Positions 37,619 through 51,565 of a stretch of 64,000 nt of DNA are shown here, one piece after another. A program made the translations under genes and the position numbers. The DNA lies in assembly GCA_951406725.2 (NCBI GenBank), contig OX597818.1:9362001-9426000 (forward strand). Reading direction: 5' to 3'. Positions within the stretch are counted from its first letter, which is position 1, and every line of letters starts with the position of its first letter. The DNA comes from Octopus vulgaris. Its lineage: Eukaryota. The notes beneath the pieces were generated by a model. It was not told the origin of the DNA. It searched no databases and was given only the letters and a program-made list of their open reading frames with translations.

Positions 37619-38910
37619 CGAGGGGCGTTCAATAAGTAATGCCCCTGACCCACTTCCCATAGCAGTAGAGCAACGAAACTTGGCACAGTCTTTTTCTACA
37701 TAGGAACCACCCAGAGTTACGCATTTCTCCCATCGTTTGATGCAGCTCTGGAGATCGTTTTAGTAGAAGACCCCAGCTTGGTCCTCCAACTACGACGTGA
37801 CTTCAGAAATCAAGGCTGCATCATCTGGGAAACGCTTACTTTCAAAAACAACTTCATGGCTGGGAAGAGGTGAAAATCAGAGGGTGCAAGGTCAGGAAAG
37901 TAGGGGAATGGGGGAGGAGTTCATAGCCGCACGCCTATGCTTCTGATCTGGCGACACGCGAGTTGTGGACCGGAGCGTTGTCCTGCAGGAGGAGGATGCC
38001 TTTACCGATCCTGCGCCGTCTCTTGATTTTGATAGCTTCTCTTAATTTCCTCAGAAGTGAAGCATAATAGGCTCCTGTAATTGTGGTACCCTTTGCCAGG
38101 AAATCTGTCATCACTACTCCGTCCTGGTCCCAGAAGACTGTGAGCATGACCTTGCCAGCGGAGGGCTGCATCCTTGCCTTCTTTGGAGGAGGTGAGTCAC
38201 GGTGCTTCCACTGCATTGACTGGGCTTTGGTCTCTGGATCATAGTGATGGACCCAGGTTTCATCCTGAGTAATCAGTCTTTTGAAAAATTTTGATTCATC
38301 TTCTTGGCACATCTCCAAATTCACCCTCGAGCACTCGACGCGTTCTTGCTTCTGGAAAGGTGTGAGCAACCTGGGAATCCATCTGGCAGACACCTTTTGC
38401 ATATGCAAATGGTCATGAATGATAGTTTCCACAGACCCGGTACTAATCTTGACCTCATGGGCTATTTGGTGAATAGTTATGCGTCGATCTTCCAAAATGG
38501 CAGCCTCAACTTGACGGACAGATGCCTCATCAATGGCAGAAGGGGAGCGACCAGATCTGGGAGCTGTTTCCACAGAGTTCCGACCATGTTTGAATTCACG
38601 ATGCCAGCGTTTTACAAGGTCATATGATGGGGCATCATTAGCATAAGTTACTTTCATTTCATCAAAAGTCTCCCGTGGTGTGCGTCCTTTCAAATACAAA
38701 AACCGGATCACTGCTCGACACTCAGCAGGTTCCATTTCACACTTGACTCAGTTCAAACACCTGTAAATCGGAAACCACAATTAGTTCAGAGCTGTAATTT
38801 GTCACTTCATCTATAGAGATATAAAGGATTGCACATGCAAAATTTCAGCTAGATCAAACAATTTCAGCTAGATCAGTGGGTCAGAAGCATTAATTATTGA
38901 ACGTCCCTCG
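37619..38910 (-). mobile_element. mariner DNA transposon, full length (~1.29 kb)
   Basis: TIRs CGAGGGGCGTTCAATAAGTAATGC / GCATTAATTATTGAACGTCCCTCG, flanked by TA. Confidence 0.96.
37935..38735 (-). pseudogene. mariner (DD34D) transposase, 266 aa open then premature stop and frameshift
   Basis: HTH region, WIPRLL, ITQDETWVHHYDPE, LLQDNAPVH. The PDLAPSDFHLFP motif lies downstream of the stop in a shifted frame. Confidence 0.93.
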
Positions 38911-43690: not shown

Positions 43691-43968
43691 ACAAAATTAG
43701 AGAATGGAGAAACATACTTAAATCAGTAAAACATCAACTATCCGATGATACTCAATCCATACTTTAATACACCATTACATATGAGTAAAGGCAATATATA
43801 AAATGAAATGAGATATACAGTAATAGTAAAAGTAAAAAGATAAAGAGATATAAGTAAAAAATTTCAAATATAATATGCAAATAAATCAAAACTGACAGCT
43901 GTTTCGGCAGTGAGGACAGTCATACCTCATTTAACCTATAAGCCATAAAGGCAGGTATAAATGAGGCA
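43690..43968 (-). repeat. 279-bp inverted copy of the element's 3' pseudo-LTR (partner 48393-48671)
   Basis: TACAAAATTAGAGAATGG...ATAAATGAGGCA versus TGCCTCATTTAT...CCATTCTCTAATTTTGTA; no mismatch seen by eye. Confidence 0.95.
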
Positions 43969-43970
43969 CC

Positions 43971-44950
43971 CCATCCAGACCGAGAATTACACTAAAGGAT
44001 CATAAAGAGAATTTTCTTGGAAACACACAGGTCAGATTAATTTGCCCCACTAAATCTGACTTAGGCAGACTAAGTAAACTCATTCTAGATAAATATCTAC
44101 CCACCATCCGCAATAAAATCAAACTAAACCTTTGGAAGAATACTCAGGGTGCTTTGGATTGGTTTTCTACCATTAAGGTCTGTGACAGTAACAACTTTAG
44201 CTATAATAGAAATAAATTTATACAATTCGATATACAGAATTATTACACTTCAATTAACCCTATTATATTAAATAAGTCCTTAATTTTTGCTAGAAAACAC
44301 ACTAAACTAAGTATGGGGGAGATTAAGGTTATACTAACAGCCAGGAAAACTTTAATAGAGTTTGATAATAAACTTTGGGCTAGAAAGGACACACCCAACT
44401 TGTTCGATATCACAATGGGATCGCCGGACTCAGCGGAGGTGACTGATCTAGTTGGGATGTATCTATTAGATAACTTTAGTAGGGAATTCCCTGAATTAAA
44501 AGGTGGATTATACAGGGATGACGCCTTATTTTGTGTTAGGAATACATCAAATAGGAGATTAGATCTTCTGAAAAAAAGAATAAATAAATTTTTTAAAAGC
44601 TTCGGCCTATCCATTATCATTGAAAGTGAAAATTATTCTGCTAATTATTTAGATGTTAATTGTAACATTACTAATGGTTTACATGAACCCTATATTAAAC
44701 CTAATTCTAACCTAATATACATTAACCGTTCTAGTAATCACCCCCCCAAATTAAAAATGCACTAGTGCGTAGCATTAGTCAGAGAATTTCTAGTTTATCC
44801 TCAAACGAGGAAATTTTTAACAAACACTGTGATAGATACAATACAGCATTACTTAAGGCAGGATATAAAAGTAAGATTTGGTTTATACCTAAGGGGAACC
44901 CCCTAATGGAGGTAGAACTATCAGGAACAACACAAATAGATTTAGGATAA
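43971..44950 (+). CDS. Penelope-like (Naiad-type) reverse transcriptase, 5'-truncated, one -1 frameshift near 44755
   Basis: Frame open upstream of the listed ORF: RITLKDHKENF..VRLICPTKSDLGRLSKLILD..LWKNT..WF. Also FIQFDIQNYYTSI, FDITMGSPDSAEVTDLVG, GLYRDDAL, YLDV, SNHPP, then RSISQRISSLSSNEEIF. Confidence 0.92.
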
Positions 44951-46227
44951 TCAACAATATACATAAGAATAGTAAAAATAGAATATATGATAACACCTAT
45001 AATAAATGTGGAAGTGACGTTAACCTTGGAAAGGTGAACGGTAGCTCAAATAGATCTAAGCATACGGGTAATAGTAGTAATATTAATAATAATATACGAA
45101 TTAAAACTTATGGTAGACATGATAATGGTAAAGTTTACTTGCGCAATAACCATGGTAATATTGATATAGATAGATATAATAATAACAGTGGTAAGAATAG
45201 TAATCCTATGAGTTGGTCTACGAATAGGATTTTCACAAATAACATTAATTCTATAGGCAATCCTAATTCTGATAAGGATACTCTTTGGTTGATTATCCCG
45301 TATGCAATGCAGATTAAAACAAACATAGTGAGAGCTTTGCATAATGTTATTTTTAGGCATTTTGGTAAGGATAGGAATAAATTTAGTCCTTTAATTAACA
45401 ACGGTACTGTTAGAGTGGGATATAGCATTACTCATAATCTAGCCACCATTATCTCCTCTTTTAATAACAAGAAACTGGATCACTTCTATAAGGATAGAAA
45501 ATTGAATTTAGACCAGGATAACTTGCCCCTCTTCATTAATAATAGGAATAGAAATTTTCTTGGAACAAATGGGAACAACCTCCTTACTAATAATGAGTGC
45601 ACCATACCTGTCAGAGATAATATAAATGTAATAGATCATACTACTACTACCAATACTAGTACTAGTGATAGAAATATAGCCGATAATGTGAAATTAACTC
45701 ATTCGTTGATTTTGGGTTTGGATGATGATAACAATTGTGACACTTATAATATGAATAGTAGTATAGGGGTGGTGTCCAATCTTAGATTTCCTCATTCTGT
45801 TAATCTTTGTAATTGCAGAAATAAAAATAAATGTGTATTTGGTAATCAATGCCTCAGGAAGGAGGTAGTTTACCAATGCACTGTAGATACACAATTGAGT
45901 AGTAGGGTGTATATCGGTGCAACTATGAATAGCATAAAACAAAGATGGAATTATCACAGATATACTTTTAGGAATAAAAATAGAATGTACTCTACAGGGC
46001 TAAGTGCATACATTTGGGAACTTAAAAGTAAGAACTTAGATTTTAGATTAAACTGGAAAATACTAACTTCAGCACCTGTGTATAATGGAAAAAATAAAAA
46101 ATGCTCTCTATGTATTAATGAAATTTTCTTCATTATTAAAGCGGGTCGGCAAATTATTAACAACATTAATGAGAAAAACTTCTTTTGTATTCATAGGCTA
46201 CCGTTCAACTTTTCTAGATTCAAATAG
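44893..46227 (+). CDS. linker and GIY-YIG endonuclease of the same polyprotein
   Basis: Frame open from 44893. LWLIIPY..IKTNI..TVRVGYS linker; CNCRNKNKCVFGNQC; VVYQC..VYIGAT..KQRWNYH; STGLSAYIWELK; CSLCINE; CIHR. Confidence 0.92.
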   Translation, partial: GEPPNGGRTIRNNTNRFRIINNIHKNSKNRIYDNTYNKCGSDVNLGKVNGSSNRSKHTGNSSNINNNIRIKTYGRHDNGKVYLRNNHGNIDIDRYNNNSGKNSNPMSWSTNRIFTNNINSIGNPNSDKDTLWLIIPYAMQIKTNIVRALHNVIFRHFGKDRNKFSPLINNGTVRVGYSITHNLATIISSFNNKKLDHFYKDRKLNLDQDNLPLFINNRNRNFLGTNGNNLLTNNECTIPVRDNINVIDHTTTTNTSTSDRNIADNVKLTHSLILGLDDDNNCDTYNMNSSIGVVSNLRFPHSVNLCNCRNKNKCVFGNQCLRKEVVYQCTVDTQLSSRVYIGATMNSIKQRWNYHRYTFRNKNRMYSTGLSAYIWELKSKNLDFRLNWKILTSAPVYNGKNKKCSLCINEIFFIIKAGRQIINNINEKNFFCIHRLPFNFSRFK

Positions 46228-47975
46228 AACTTAGCACTTCCACTATTATTAATTTTTTAATTCCCTTCTTTAACTAAATATACCTGTGGTCCTCTATAAT
46301 TCTAAAGTATACAATTTATAAATTTCATAATTTTATAAGTTTTATAGCTACATTTGTATAATAATTAATGGATGTGTCTAGTATTATTGGTTCCTTGATT
46401 TTTGTATGTGGGTTTTTGTTTTTTTTTTTTAAGTGAAATGCAATATGACATAAAATAGCATATTCATTTTGGTATTTGCCTTGTAATGTGTGATTTTTGA
46501 AGTTTTCCAATATTGCATAGTATATTGCATAGTATATATGTATATCTTGATTAGATACCTAGCTCTAGATAATGTAATGATATTGTATAATATGTAATAT
46601 ATGAGAGCCTTTTATGAGTTTGGTGGGTTTAGGTTGAGATTATAGGTTTTTTGTATGTGTTTATTTGGAAGGTTTTTATTATATATTTGGTCTTTTTGTA
46701 CTCACCTTAATTTGTATCTTATGCTATTCACTGATAAACCTTTTTCATTTTTCTTTTTTTCATTTTCTCATTTACATGCATTTTGCTTTATAATTATTAC
46801 CAGCCTCATATATTTAGTTTATATCTATAGTCCTCTGGATCTGTACTTTAAACTATCCTTCCATACATTTTTACTTTCAACAATATAAAATATATATAAA
46901 AAATATATATTCACTTTATTTATTTTTATTTATTTCCCATTTTATTGTAATATTATCAATCTTTGCATCTAGTCTTCTATTCATTTATTTATTTGCCTAT
47001 TTAAGTGTAGATGTTTACATACATATCAAGTCATCTAATTTGTTACCTATTTATTTTTTACTTGTTTACTTATACTGGTGTAGTTTTATACATACATATC
47101 TATCATTTATTTGTATTTAATTTTAATAATATATGAATACATATATACTAGTTTGTGCTTATAATTATGTGTACAACCGTATTTATTCCTTCGTATTTAT
47201 TCCTTCTTATTTATTTTATCTCTTTTCATCTTAAGTCTTTATAATATAAAATTTATTTAAAATCTCTGTGATGTTCTCATAAGCGTTTACATTAATACTT
47301 CCCCTTCTATTCTTTAATGCCTAAACTGGTATATTATGGCACTATATTTATTAAGTTAATAAGTGACTTATTTATAATATTTAAATTAATATATATTTTA
47401 TATTTTATATTTTATAATTTAGCGTACTTAAAATCATAACAAACTTACGATAAACCTAACAACCGTATGTTTACTCTGTAACAAACCGGTGTTATAAATT
47501 TTAAGTTACCCATGAAATAATTATCTGAATTAGTAACATACTGATATTTAAAAATATATTTATATCTAAATTAAATATTTTATAGAATGCATGGATGGTT
47601 CTTTTTTTGTTATTGAGGCTCAGTTATAATTTTGAAGGACTAAATGTTAGCATAGTTGCTTCCCTTTTTTGTTTATCTAAGTGCTAGTTGTTGCTTGTTA
47701 ATATGTATGTGTATAAGTGTATGTATATACATATAACTATGTGTGTATGTGCGATTGATCTGTAGATGCGTGTGTGAATATTGGCGTTCCTTGACTAACC
47801 AACCGTATAATTTTCTTTTGTGATTTAAATTTCAAACCAATAGCCAATCGAATTAATCTAAATTTTCTTTACCTAGTGGTCAGCATTTCTTAACTCATAG
47901 TTATTTCGATCTTGAAAGGATGGACTTGGTGCTAACTTAACTGTATCTATTTTTAGTATTTTTTTATTATTATTA

Positions 47976-48022
<47 letters not shown>

Positions 48023-48361
48023 AGTAATTTTTATTAACTTTTATAGCTTTAGAATTTTATGAACTGTACCACGGATTTAATTATTATTTTTCATCTCCAT
48101 ATGTGTTAGCCCTTTTTTTATAAAAAAAACTATTAGCCAAATATGTACAATATCGGTACTTATTAATATTAATATATACACTGTTATATATTTTGTTTTA
48201 TATTGTTCTGTTTACCTTCCTTTTTGTACAAATGTGTATTATATTATATAAGTGTAGCATTATGATGTATAAGTTTTTATATTTTACATTTTTATATTTT
48301 TATATTTATATGTATATGATTATATAATATTTTTCACTATTATAACAAATTTAATTTAATT

Positions 48362-48469
48362 CTCTGAAGAGGCCGTGGGGCATCCTTGTTAATGCCTCAT
48401 TTATACCTGCCTTTATGGCTTATAGGTTAAATGAGGTATGACTGTCCTCACTGCCGAAACAGCTGTCAG
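48362..48469 (+). ncRNA. type I hammerhead ribozyme of the Penelope-like element, 85-nt stem II
   Basis: CTGAAGA (48364-70), GGC..GCC-closed long hairpin (48371-48455), GAAA, palindromic ACAGCTGT stem III, GTC cleavage triplet (48465-67). Stem I is weak. Confidence 0.8.
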
Positions 48470-48836
48470 TTTTGATTTATTTGCATATTATATTTGAAAT
48501 TTTTTACTTATATCTCTTTATCTTTTTACTTTTACTATTACTGTATATCTCATTTCATTTTATATATTGCCTTTACTCATATGTAATGGTGTATTAAAGT
48601 ATGGATTGAGTATCATCGGATAGTTGATGTTTTACTGATTTAAGTATGTTTCTCCATTCTCTAATTTTGTAGTATTAATTTACGGTAATATTATTACCTT
48701 TACCCATTTAATACAATAGATGAACTGATTGCTTGACAATTTTTAACATCTATGTATTATTTTTGTTGGGTACCTATCTAGCAGTATATTGGATATATAT
48801 TATCCCATGGTGGGTTGAATTTTCAACCCCTATCTC

Positions 48837-48953
<117 letters not shown>

Positions 48954-49288
48954 CCTAAACCCTCATGTGCATGTATGCAAGTGTGCTGTTTGCCTGTGTC
49001 TGTATGTTCATTCATGCAATATTTTCTAAATTGCTCACATGCAGGGCCCCAGTATATCTTTAGCCTTACAGCTGAAACATATGAGAGAATAAAAGAATAT
49101 ATATATATATATATATAGAATGGTTGTATACTGTCAATCTAACACGAACGTGACAGTAGGGGGGTACACCACCGCTGTATAGCCCTAGGAAGCATCGACG
49201 CCTCCTGATGGCTTTGACACATTTTTTCCCTGTGTCCTTATATACATTTACGAAGGGGAGACAAACACCCCCGGCCGCCGGAGCTGCA

Positions 49289-49333
49289 TCTAGGGACACG
49301 TGTTTCAGGATCATTGTCCTTCATCGGCCTAGA
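49289..49333 (-). ncRNA. minimal type I hammerhead ribozyme, variant core CCGAUGA
   Basis: TCTAGG-CCGATGA-AGGA-CAATGA-TCCT-GAAA-C-ACGT-GTC-CCTAGA. Perfect 6-bp stem I, 4-bp stem II, palindromic stem III ACACGTGT. Confidence 0.85.
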
Positions 49334-49793
49334 GTAGCAGACACCGGTCAGCTGGCGATATTTGTCTCGACTTCGTATTGTATATATCTATAATGCAGTG
49401 AAGTCTATTCACTGATTATCAAAATAAGAAATACTAAATTTCTAAATCTCTCGTAGAGACATGTACGGTGGTGGGGCGATAGAATGGTTGTATACTGTCA
49501 ATCTAACACGAACGTGACAGTAGGGGGTACACCACCGCTGTATAGCCCTAGGAAGCATCGACGCCTCCTGATGGCTTTGACACATTTTTCCCTGTGTCTT
49601 TATATACATTCACGTCCGTGTTAGATTTATAGTATACAACCATTCTATCGCCCCACCACCGTACATGTCTCTACGAGAGATTTAGAAATTTAGTATTTCT
49701 TATTTTGATAATCAGTGAATAGACTTCACTGAATTATAGATATATACAATACGAAGTCGAGACAAATATCGCCAGCTGACCGGTGTCTGCTAC

Positions 49794-49838
49794 TCTAGGC
49801 CGATGAAGGACAATGATCCTGAAACACGTGTCCATAGA
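49794..49838 (+). ncRNA. minimal type I hammerhead ribozyme, variant core CCGAUGA (second copy)
   Basis: Same as 49289-49333 with one stem I mismatch (CATAGA). Confidence 0.8.
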
Positions 49839-51014
49839 TGCAGCTCCGGCGGCCGGGGGTGTTTGTCTCCCCTTCGTAAATGTACATAAGGACACAGGGA
49901 AAATTGTGTCAAAGCCATCAGGAGGCGTCGATGCTTCCTAGGGCTATACAGCGGTGATGTACCTCCCTACTGTCACGTTCGTGTTAGATTGACAGTATAC
50001 AACCATTCTATCGCCCCACCACCGTACATGTCTCTACGAGAGATTTAGAAATTTAGTATTTCTCATATATATATACACACGTATAGTAACTCCAATGATA
50101 TATTTATATGATGCTCCATTTATAGTGACTAAACCTAAACAATTGACAACTGACCGAAAAATGATCGGCCGAACCACTGGGAATTGAACACAACATCAAT
50201 GCTTACATAGCTCCGTACGCACCCAATTCGGCAACATTTTATGTATAGATTATTTAGCCTAGTTTATGCATTTAAAGATTTGTAAACAAACCCGAAGGCT
50301 GAAAATTACGGATAAGAGACACACATATAGGTTCTTTTTAATAATAGCTGTAATTATATATAATTTATATCACAATATATATTTAATTCAGAGCGACTAC
50401 TCCTAAACAATTGTTTAGTTCAGAGTTGCCTCTGATGTATCAGATCTATCGCATACATTTTTTTTCCTGAAATACAGTGAATCTTGGTCCTTTTGATGAA
50501 AGCGTGTGATTGAAAATATATTTGGTTGCTATTTGTAGAACCTCAAGTTACCACCTTGTGTGTGTGTTTTGTTGAGGTGAATAAAATATTGTTCTCTGAA
50601 TATTTGGCACAATAATTTTTAAAGAAATCTGGACATCTTTCTTACTGCTAACCATTTAACTTCAAATTGCAATTGTTTATTTTTGGCAGTCAAATAGACT
50701 TAAATATACACATAGTGTTGTCGTATAGGGTGGAAGTTCAATACAATGTTTTGAAGTCATTATCTTGTGTCTAGTAATACATTACCTTAAATTTTAAGCC
50801 ATTAAGTCTTTAAACATTATTTTATTAGGTTTAGTCTTTTGACTGTCGCCATGATGGGGTTCCACCTTCCAAAATTTAATTTAATATACTATCCTCAGCA
50901 CGGATTTCAAAGTGGCATTTATTTTATAGATTCCTGCTTGATGAACTTTGAGACATAGTAGGACACAATACTCGATTTAACAAAAATGTAAACATACACA
51001 GATATTTTAGGTTC

Positions 51015-51165
51015 AAGAATGACTGCGTAGTTGAGAAGTTTGCTTCCCAACCATATTGTTCCACGTTCAGTCCCTCCGCATTGTATCGTGAACAAGTGTT
51101 TTCTACTATAGCCCTAGGCCAACCACAGACTTGTGACTGAATTTCTTATACGGAAACTGTAGGGT
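51015..51165 (+). mobile_element. degenerate SINE family A fragment
   Basis: TTGCTTCCCAACCA..GTTCAGTCCC..CTACTATAGCC..ACGGAAACTG. Confidence 0.7.
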
Positions 51166-51565
51166 TGCTGATCCGTAAATGCCCATAAAAAGGTAACAAA
51201 TAATACAATTTGGTGTGGATCTTAACAGCAGGGCAACGGTGTAGTGTATTGCTAGTATAATAATAATATATACTCTATTTCGCGTGACTAGTCCCAAACA
51301 AAAGAGAGAAAAAAGATCAATTGTTTAAGTTTAGTCGCTCTAAATGGAGTATATATTATTATATAAATAATATATAATTACAGTTTTTATTAAAAAGGAC
51401 ATAAGTGTGTCTCTATTCTCCGTAATTTACAGCCTTCGACTTTGCCTTTCATCCTTTCAGAATCTGTAAAGTTGAATACTGGGGGTGGATGTAATCGACT
51501 TACCCTTACCTCCGAACTGGTTAGTCTTTTGCCAAAACTTGAAATTAATATTTCTTTATACATAA

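Follow-up and report, generated by a model that had tools for sequence, protein, structure and literature searches.

A 364-nt hammerhead repeat family of Octopus vulgaris with two fixed 3′ ends and a C4 ribozyme core, probably mobilized by a Penelope-like enzyme

The octopus locus studied here is probably a dispersed copy of a non-coding 364-nt hammerhead family, that is, a non-LTR retrozyme, which would have been inserted in trans by the reverse transcriptase-endonuclease of a Penelope-like element (PLE), and we hold this reading with good confidence. The assignment to a PLE enzyme follows from the manner in which such copies begin and end: two fixed 3′ ends with variable 5′ ends, (TA)n targets, short target duplications, insertions that pair one 3′ end of each kind, and arms that share alleles. 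The locus lies in a 64,000-nt window (the whole stretch of contig OX597818.1 that was analysed, positions 9,362,001 to 9,426,000) and consists of two arms of the unit set head to head, with a 5-nt overlap at the inversion and (TA)n on both flanks. Throughout, phase denotes position counted from the predicted hammerhead cleavage site. The features, in window coordinates, are:

49097..49117, no strand: (TA)n target, left side
49115..49614, minus strand: left arm, 500 nt with a period of 364 (1.37–1.38 monomers); its 3′ end is site A (phase 180), abutting (TA)n
49235..49397, minus strand: predicted long rod, phases 262–324 paired with 7–60, which closes around the hammerhead and draws both monomer ends together
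49289..49333, minus strand: type I hammerhead, left copy, with a 6-bp stem I, CCGAUGA core, short stem II and palindromic stem III; C4 at 49326, predicted cleavage between 49295 and 49294
49610..49614, no strand: inversion junction, a 5-nt microhomology linking the two 5′-truncated arm ends
49610..50066, plus strand: right arm, 457 nt with a period of 363 (1.26 monomers); its 3′ end is site B (phase 235), abutting (TA)n
49794..49838, plus strand: type I hammerhead, right copy; C4 at 49801, predicted cleavage after 49832, stem I broken at 49834
50012..50066, plus strand: 55-nt “tail” between sites A and B, present at the end of one arm only
50065..50076, no strand: (TA)n target, right side

An earlier reading made from the sequence only had described a 364-bp tandem monomer arranged as an inverted double array, and this layout stands (arms of 1.38 and 1.26 units, identical at 393 of 403 positions in their aligned part), with the right boundary corrected from 50063 to 50066. 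We likewise confirm that both arms at the locus exceed one monomer and differ in their start and end phases, that the unit falls in the size range of known non-LTR retrozymes (364 bp, within 150–450 bp), and that both hammerhead copies carry a non-canonical CCGAUGA core, neither having the U4 of canonical CUGANGA. GAAA, the GUC cut site and a self-complementary stem III are present in both copies. The three well-formed stems ascribed to each are found in the left copy, whereas stem I of the right copy is interrupted by a C-to-A change at 49834 that is private to it (1 of 136 aligned arms). A scan of the whole window against Rfam gave zero matches at the gathering score; the hammerhead call rests on motif, stems and covariation; the 364-bp repeat is also absent from the output of Tandem Repeats Finder for the window. 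The longest ATG frame of the repeated monomer is 78 aa in sense and 61 aa in antisense, and no RT-GIY-YIG reading frame lies within the monomer or joined to the arms.

The repeat has at least 122 matches in the 2.8-Gb genome (from 40 scored of 2174 candidates), far above chance. The map of copies covers 98 distinct loci: 27 remained of the 30 top BLAST hits once 3 duplicates were taken out, and 71 were selected by hammerhead pattern; many matches to GGTCGATGA belonged to another abundant repeat and were set aside. Having been picked by best BLAST score or intact hammerhead, these loci are a non-random sample, 39 of the 98 being single-arm. Among the 157 arms of at least 40 nt, 72 have their 3′ end at site A (phases 174–182, 50 of them at exactly 180) and 68 at site B (phases 229–240, 55 at exactly 235), leaving 17 elsewhere; the two sites are 55 nt apart, and their windows together occupy 5.8% of the unit. 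(TA)n follows 102 of the 140 ends at A or B, and non-simple flanking direct repeats, which we take as target duplications, are found at 16 loci whose target is other than a microsatellite (7–28 nt, the clear cases about 8–14 nt). Variation is confined to the 5′ ends, as expected of ordinary 5′ truncation, and these are spread across the unit apart from a pile-up at phases 325–330 (6 of 42 5′ ends in the BLAST-chosen set, p = 6e-5). This pile-up lies at the 5′ edge of stem I, in 0.6-unit and 1.6-unit arms alike, and may reflect a reverse transcriptase stall, a transcription start or TA microhomology; a 3′ splice site was dropped as its cause, the AG being missing in most copies of family 2 and in family 3 (two related families, described below). 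At several single arms, L002, L003, L014 and L091 among them, the 5′ end abuts pieces of abundant SINE-like repeats, perhaps through insertion into these or a template switch onto their RNA.

The distribution of 3′ ends bears directly on a proposal that builds on the sequence-only reading, namely that copying begins anywhere on a circular RNA and yields permuted copies, with the adjacent element as the probable driver. Such a process would give arms of more than one unit whose start and end phases differ, and the locus has them, but the survey of permutation among genomic copies, which that reading had itself named as able to overturn it, found fixed ends (140 of 157 3′ ends on two sites), and the adjacent element has no sequence in common with the monomer and possesses a hammerhead and two ends of its own, ~175 nt apart. 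Free circular permutation is refuted, and we accord the proposal almost no probability.

The two fixed ends are moreover paired. Of 57 inverted insertions, 13 have one outer end off-site and 2 have both; in the remaining 42, where both outer ends lie on A or B, every one is A+B, with no A+A and no B+B (p = 2e-13). Scored by eye, family 2 has 11 A+B insertions; in 5 others an end lies off-site, and one of these five (L140) is possibly an eroded B+B. Family 3, also by eye, has 4 A+B, and 2 of its 6 two-arm insertions (L233, L235) are possibly A+A. These possible same-site pairs in family 3 count against our explanation, as does the failure to find an autonomous partner enzyme in the PLE loci searched (see below).

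Both arms appear to derive from one template. Between the two arms of one insertion, 16 of 324 comparisons at polymorphic sites show a difference, while permuted pairs differ at 37.5% (lowest 26%), and 17 of 202 rare variants are common to both arms, against 0.4% in permuted pairs (40 pairs). Sharing of this kind would also be expected if the inverted arm were a fold-back copy made by a single self-priming cDNA, with no second priming on RNA (the self-priming model, PMC3846280), and the junction microhomologies, which are short (mostly 0–5 nt), are in keeping with that route. In 23 of the 42 A+B insertions, the studied locus included, neither arm is contained in the other, an outcome that one folded-back cDNA cannot give, and the 5′ phases of the two arms lie within 20 nt of each other in 4 of 42, against 4.7 expected by chance. 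Fold-back is thus refuted as a general mechanism and is highly improbable as the explanation of the family; some of the other 19 insertions may have arisen by it. The simplest reading, we infer, is one RNA on a dimeric PLE protein, with each DNA end priming at its own site. In L1 twin priming, two DNA ends likewise prime on one RNA and leave an inverted 5′ part; the octopus insertions are unlike it in that both priming sites are fixed, the cDNAs overlap in the template, and the retrozyme has no poly(A) end.

We then consider the form of that template, which the sequence-only reading had rightly suggested to be circular or multimeric. The predicted cleavage site is crossed by 115 of 140 arms and 5′ ends show no excess there (3 of 140 within phases 361–5, a span of 9 of the 364 phases), so the template was either uncut or re-closed. 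Arms longer than one unit make up 62 of the 157, and one further locus reaches 3.4 units; tandem hammerheads 363–365 bp apart occur at many loci, with 13 of the 157 arms holding two. Divergence is 2.4% between tandem units in an arm (204/8588), 2.8% between arm and arm (216/7754) and 2.8% between an arm and the neighbouring unit (100/3629). Tandem units mismatch at 11 of 318 subfamily-site comparisons and share rare variants in 16 of 196, and tandem arms have no consistent unit-specific alleles, no such difference recurring more than 4 times. This homogeneity speaks for a circle, with one monomer copied again and again; counted against the circle, the pile-up at 325–330, at the base of the rod, fits a linear precursor better. 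Within the retrozyme/PLE reading we lean towards a circular template, while regarding an uncut linear multimer as a distinct possibility. A retrozyme copy has been termed “active” when it has at least two consecutive hammerhead units (10.64898/2026.07.22.740005); the studied locus, with one hammerhead per arm and hence fewer than two consecutive units, is probably a dead-end product from which no monomer is released.

The substitution at core position 4 (U4C) is a family trait and not decay, as the sequence-only reading had supposed. In the family of the studied locus (family 1), C4 is present in 397 of 408 exact genome matches to a 31-nt pattern that allows A, C or T at this position, and a narrower 33-nt pattern gives 65 matches with C4 and 1 with T4. 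As a CpG control, 11 matches have a non-C at position 4 and 4 have the mirror change, a non-G at position 5, 3 of the latter being CCA; the 11 exceptions are partly CpG decay, which may not account for every canonical-looking copy, and some are perhaps tolerated reversions. A sister family (family 2; 356 nt, 74% identical to family 1, 123 matches to its marker) has U4 in 16 of 16 distinct hammerheads among the matches listed, five of these loci having been pre-picked from a list showing T, whereas C is again the majority letter in the more distant family 3 (353 nt, 52% identical; C4 in 82 of 90 matches, with 2 sister-type matches left out). In contigs from four sequencing runs under three organism labels, the free N7 is the one place in the core for which variation of 3% or more is listed, contigs being prone to drop rare variants; in the same survey the loops, one stem I wobble and the stem III loop also vary. 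Many variant contigs of the family come from runs X1, X2, X4, X14 and X5 (guessed to be RNA); the kind of contig is uncertain, and they have no bearing on expression, circles or cleavage.

U4C is on record as a natural viroid variant, slow in vitro yet viable in vivo (as cited in PMC3088659), and search descriptors of the CYGANGA form admit C at position 4 (PMC13481778). Here C4 is no rare variant but the majority state of two multi-copy genomic families. Our search of the literature for CCGAUGA-type spellings together with “hammerhead” found no genomic family fixed for U4C, and supplements may hold such variants or families. Searches confined to CUGANGA would miss C4 families, and with the natural C4/U4 sister pair one can ask directly whether a retroelement benefits from a slower hammerhead. 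Further hammerhead-like repeat families are present at L217:858 (+), L221:6091 (+), L109 and L110, that at L217 with another CCGAUGA core.

The circular monomer (GC 45.9%) is predicted to fold at −130.6 kcal/mol (z = −6.4, 60 shuffles), and the antisense strand nearly as well (z = −5.3); the rod that pairs phases 262–324 with 7–60 around the hammerhead is predicted in all three families. In 14 aligned sequences of families 1 and 2, both-sided changes occur in 15 of 54 pairs (9.3 in shuffles, 2–5 in slid controls), and between the two families in 3 of 6 pairs of stem I and 3 of 4 of stem II; these counts mostly reflect a single split between two families and are not probabilities. Several mid-rod pairs are broken between families through an indel. 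Covarying stems around a fixed core would point to selection at the RNA level, and we count them in favour of the retrozyme reading. In each of the three families stem III is a palindrome or close to one, with a predicted duplex of −9 to −13 kcal/mol and no hairpin alone; a palindromic stem III of this type is described as a mark of dimer-acting hammerheads (PMC4209133). The minimal dimer-type hammerheads of PLEs treated in the same source have the short palindromic stem III in common with ours and, in the case of the sister families, also an extra nucleotide before stem II.

Fold and core together allow us to weigh a further possibility, namely that family 1 does use a PLE enzyme and its hammerhead is a near-silent relic, only uncut linear multimers being copied and no circle being formed. 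U4C considerably lowers activity in vitro and is described as deleterious there (PMC3088659), unprocessed RNA was the main substrate of a PLE protein in vitro (PMC11167929), and 8 of 9 Xenopus dimers showed no cleavage (10.64898/2026.07.22.740005); the 5′ ends, too, cluster not at the cut site but at the 5′ edge of stem I, at the rod base. A relic would not readily account for a core that stays fixed while the stems covary, nor would linear propagation with 5′ truncation keep the subfamily alleles and rare variants that tandem units share. We consider a relic hammerhead possible but on balance unlikely, and retain the retrozyme reading, in which the ribozyme would cut slowly.

Two described groups come closest to the family. 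Metazoan non-LTR retrozymes (PMC7229834; 10.64898/2026.07.22.740005) are likewise non-coding units of 150–450 bp with one type I hammerhead, GC below 50% and strong self-pairing, and they too form short tandem and dispersed copies with target duplications of more than 4 bp (mussel units measure 350–390 bp). The octopus family is unlike them in its CCGAUGA core, in its arrangement (mostly 0.5–2 units in inverted pairs) and in its two fixed 3′ ends; circles and cleavage, demonstrated for the metazoan retrozymes, are putative here. By unit size, hammerhead, non-coding character, GC, fold and duplications, it is a predicted member of that class. With EN+ PLEs (PMC3846280, PMC8557442, PMC11167929) it shares 5′ truncation, partial tandems, a head-to-head copy, a tail on one end only, 8–14 bp duplications, a preference for (TA)n, a hammerhead upstream of two start sites and cargo in trans; it is unlike them in having no RT-endonuclease ORF, in that the unit itself repeats, and in a tail of 55 nt versus 30–40. 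The inverted double array is not peculiar to this element but the standard PLE layout (PMC8557442, PMC3846280), in which only one of the two inverted repeats bears the tail (PMC3846280, PMC8557442). In vitro, a PLE protein cuts and extends both DNA strands, two internal start sites bounding the tail (PMC11167929).

So close a likeness raises the question of whether a separate short element exists at all, or whether the arms are merely the 5′-truncated tail ends (pseudo-LTRs, pLTRs) of an autonomous PLE in its usual tandem-plus-inverted form. The layout, the tail, the (TA)n target and the target duplications are all known from PLEs and speak for this. Against it, the 62 of 157 arms that run beyond one unit keep the 364-bp period, with up to 3.4 units in an arm, two Hydra proteins compared by tblastn with the retrozyme loci gave scattered flank hits only, and the rod that pairs both monomer ends covaries across families. 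The sole 5′ extension common among single arms is moreover a passenger coding for an ORF1-like protein only. The pseudo-LTR explanation is largely refuted, and we leave it a very slim chance.

This passenger appears at three single-arm loci as a 1.69-kb insert with a 459-aa frame and an AATAAA near its end, flanked by a 17-nt duplication of phases 297–313, just upstream of the hammerhead. Its protein has CCHC-knuckle and ZCCHC3-like clusters as neighbours in the ESM Atlas (0.90–0.92) and a sub-threshold Pfam hit to zf-CCHC, and a comparison with the PDB gave no useful hit. Among its 148 genome matches, the best 16 are without exception next to family 1 monomer DNA, several of them in A+B insertions or tandem long units, and the next 14 lie in other targets (relatives L162–L175, in other repeats). 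An insert 73% identical to this one occurs in family 2, at a site close by. Our reading is that an ORF1-only LINE derivative, comparable to HAL1 (PMC5753468) in coding for an ORF1-like protein only, entered the retrozyme and now travels along with it; carriage of cargo between pLTRs is known (PMC3846280). The passenger loci (L137:2235-5683, L139:2457-4144, L146–L161 and L103:4376-6056) include tandem copies and long insert-plus-monomer tandems, in two retrozyme families.

In the mechanism that we propose, a copy with two or more hammerheads would be transcribed, the U4C dimer-type hammerhead would cut slowly, and the unit-length RNA would be closed to a circle, or the RNA would persist uncut as a multimer. 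One such RNA would be bound by a PLE protein, probably dimeric, which would make a staggered cut in AT-rich DNA; both DNA 3′ ends would prime, one at site A and one at site B, and the two cDNAs would be joined through microhomology into a head-to-head array. Two findings with a PLE protein in vitro weigh against this scheme: its start site did not differ between the two DNA strands, and the hammerhead was dispensable for insertion (PMC11167929). More tentatively, the separate strands of evidence might be joined as follows: a circular ribozyme RNA parasite fixed the slow U4C so as to persist intact as template, one PLE dimer docks on it asymmetrically with each subunit priming one side of the break at its own fixed site, and the circle is itself parasitised by the ORF1-only LINE derivative, riding as a 2-kb coding unit. 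We place this combined account somewhat short of an even chance. If it is true, the presence of the PLE tail at a single end would follow from a strict rule of one RNA and two sites, which could be read from a 364-nt substrate.

We regard the family as real and young, with a fixed U4C core and an unusually clean footprint of PLE insertion. Published work already covers the retrozyme class, the link to PLEs, the tail and U4C. Strict A+B pairing from one template and a C4/U4 sister pair were not found in the literature searched, and the passages that link retrozymes to PLEs base the connection on co-occurrence and on similarity to pLTRs, with no mention of fixed ends or A+B pairing (PMC7229834; 10.64898/2026.07.22.740005). 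Where animal retrozyme mobility was argued on those grounds, a PLE footprint in the insertions supplies a mechanistic trace, and with pairing in 42 of 42 from one template, the PLE tail and the inverted arrangement, so far unexplained, become a model that can be tested on a 364-nt RNA.

We finally examined the neighbouring element (43692–48959) and other PLEs as possible partners. Its reverse transcriptase domain precedes a GIY-YIG domain, and RWR, DKT, CxCX5C, CxxC and CxH motifs can be read in the window frames and in a 99% identical copy (L206). The Hydra clade is described by a C-terminal endonuclease, an RWK-like motif, DKT, a CxCX5C linker, CxxC, CxH, (TA)n insertion and a hammerhead (PMC8557442), and by motifs matched to this description the neighbour is a (TA)n-inserting Hydra-clade PLE. 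The name Naiad given to it in the sequence-only reading has to be withdrawn: Naiad has an N-terminal endonuclease, DKA and no canonical hammerhead, whereas here the endonuclease comes last, the motif is DKT, and there is a CUGAAGA hammerhead with a long stem II (about 48372–48468). The gap to the retrozyme, put by that reading at ~270 bp, is ~155 bp, as the last bases of the neighbour recur after a microsatellite at about 48953–48959. The adjacency of the two elements is explained by the preference of both for (TA)n. The neighbour is young, many copies being 98–100% identical in the reverse transcriptase; the window copy is frameshifted and has an asparagine-rich linker and an inverted 5′ arm. 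The two ends of this PLE, at 48675 and about 48850, are separated by ~175 nt, far above the described tails of 30–40 nt, and lie one on each arm, both in the window and in L210.

A search for a pLTR partner of the retrozyme gave no match in the window PLE and 20 further Hydra-type loci (reverse transcriptase search), nor, among the matches listed by a PF01541 search, in 30 GIY-YIG loci with 1.5-kb flanks, nearly all Neptune-like; these samples cover part of the PLE families of the genome, in which Neptune-like PLEs are abundant. Pfam named neither Hydra ORF. A second Hydra family (L216 minus strand, L220:1901-5173; 57% identity in the reverse transcriptase) has an intact frame of 1090 aa; its CUGACGA hammerhead is predicted to cut after GUA, and one end lies just ~35 nt downstream. 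An abundant Neptune-like PLE (L247, L252) has 781-aa frames and, at its 3′ end ~1 kb downstream of the GIY-YIG domain, an apparent hammerhead, with U3-A8 covariation in the core and a palindromic stem III. Elsewhere in the window, MITE-like inverted repeats (50287–50413 and 51318–51444, 83%, with related ends of 28–36 nt) lie directly to the right of the retrozyme, within 50111–51444, and a mariner-type transposase frame (Transposase_1, HTH_48) lies on the minus strand at 37935–38747.
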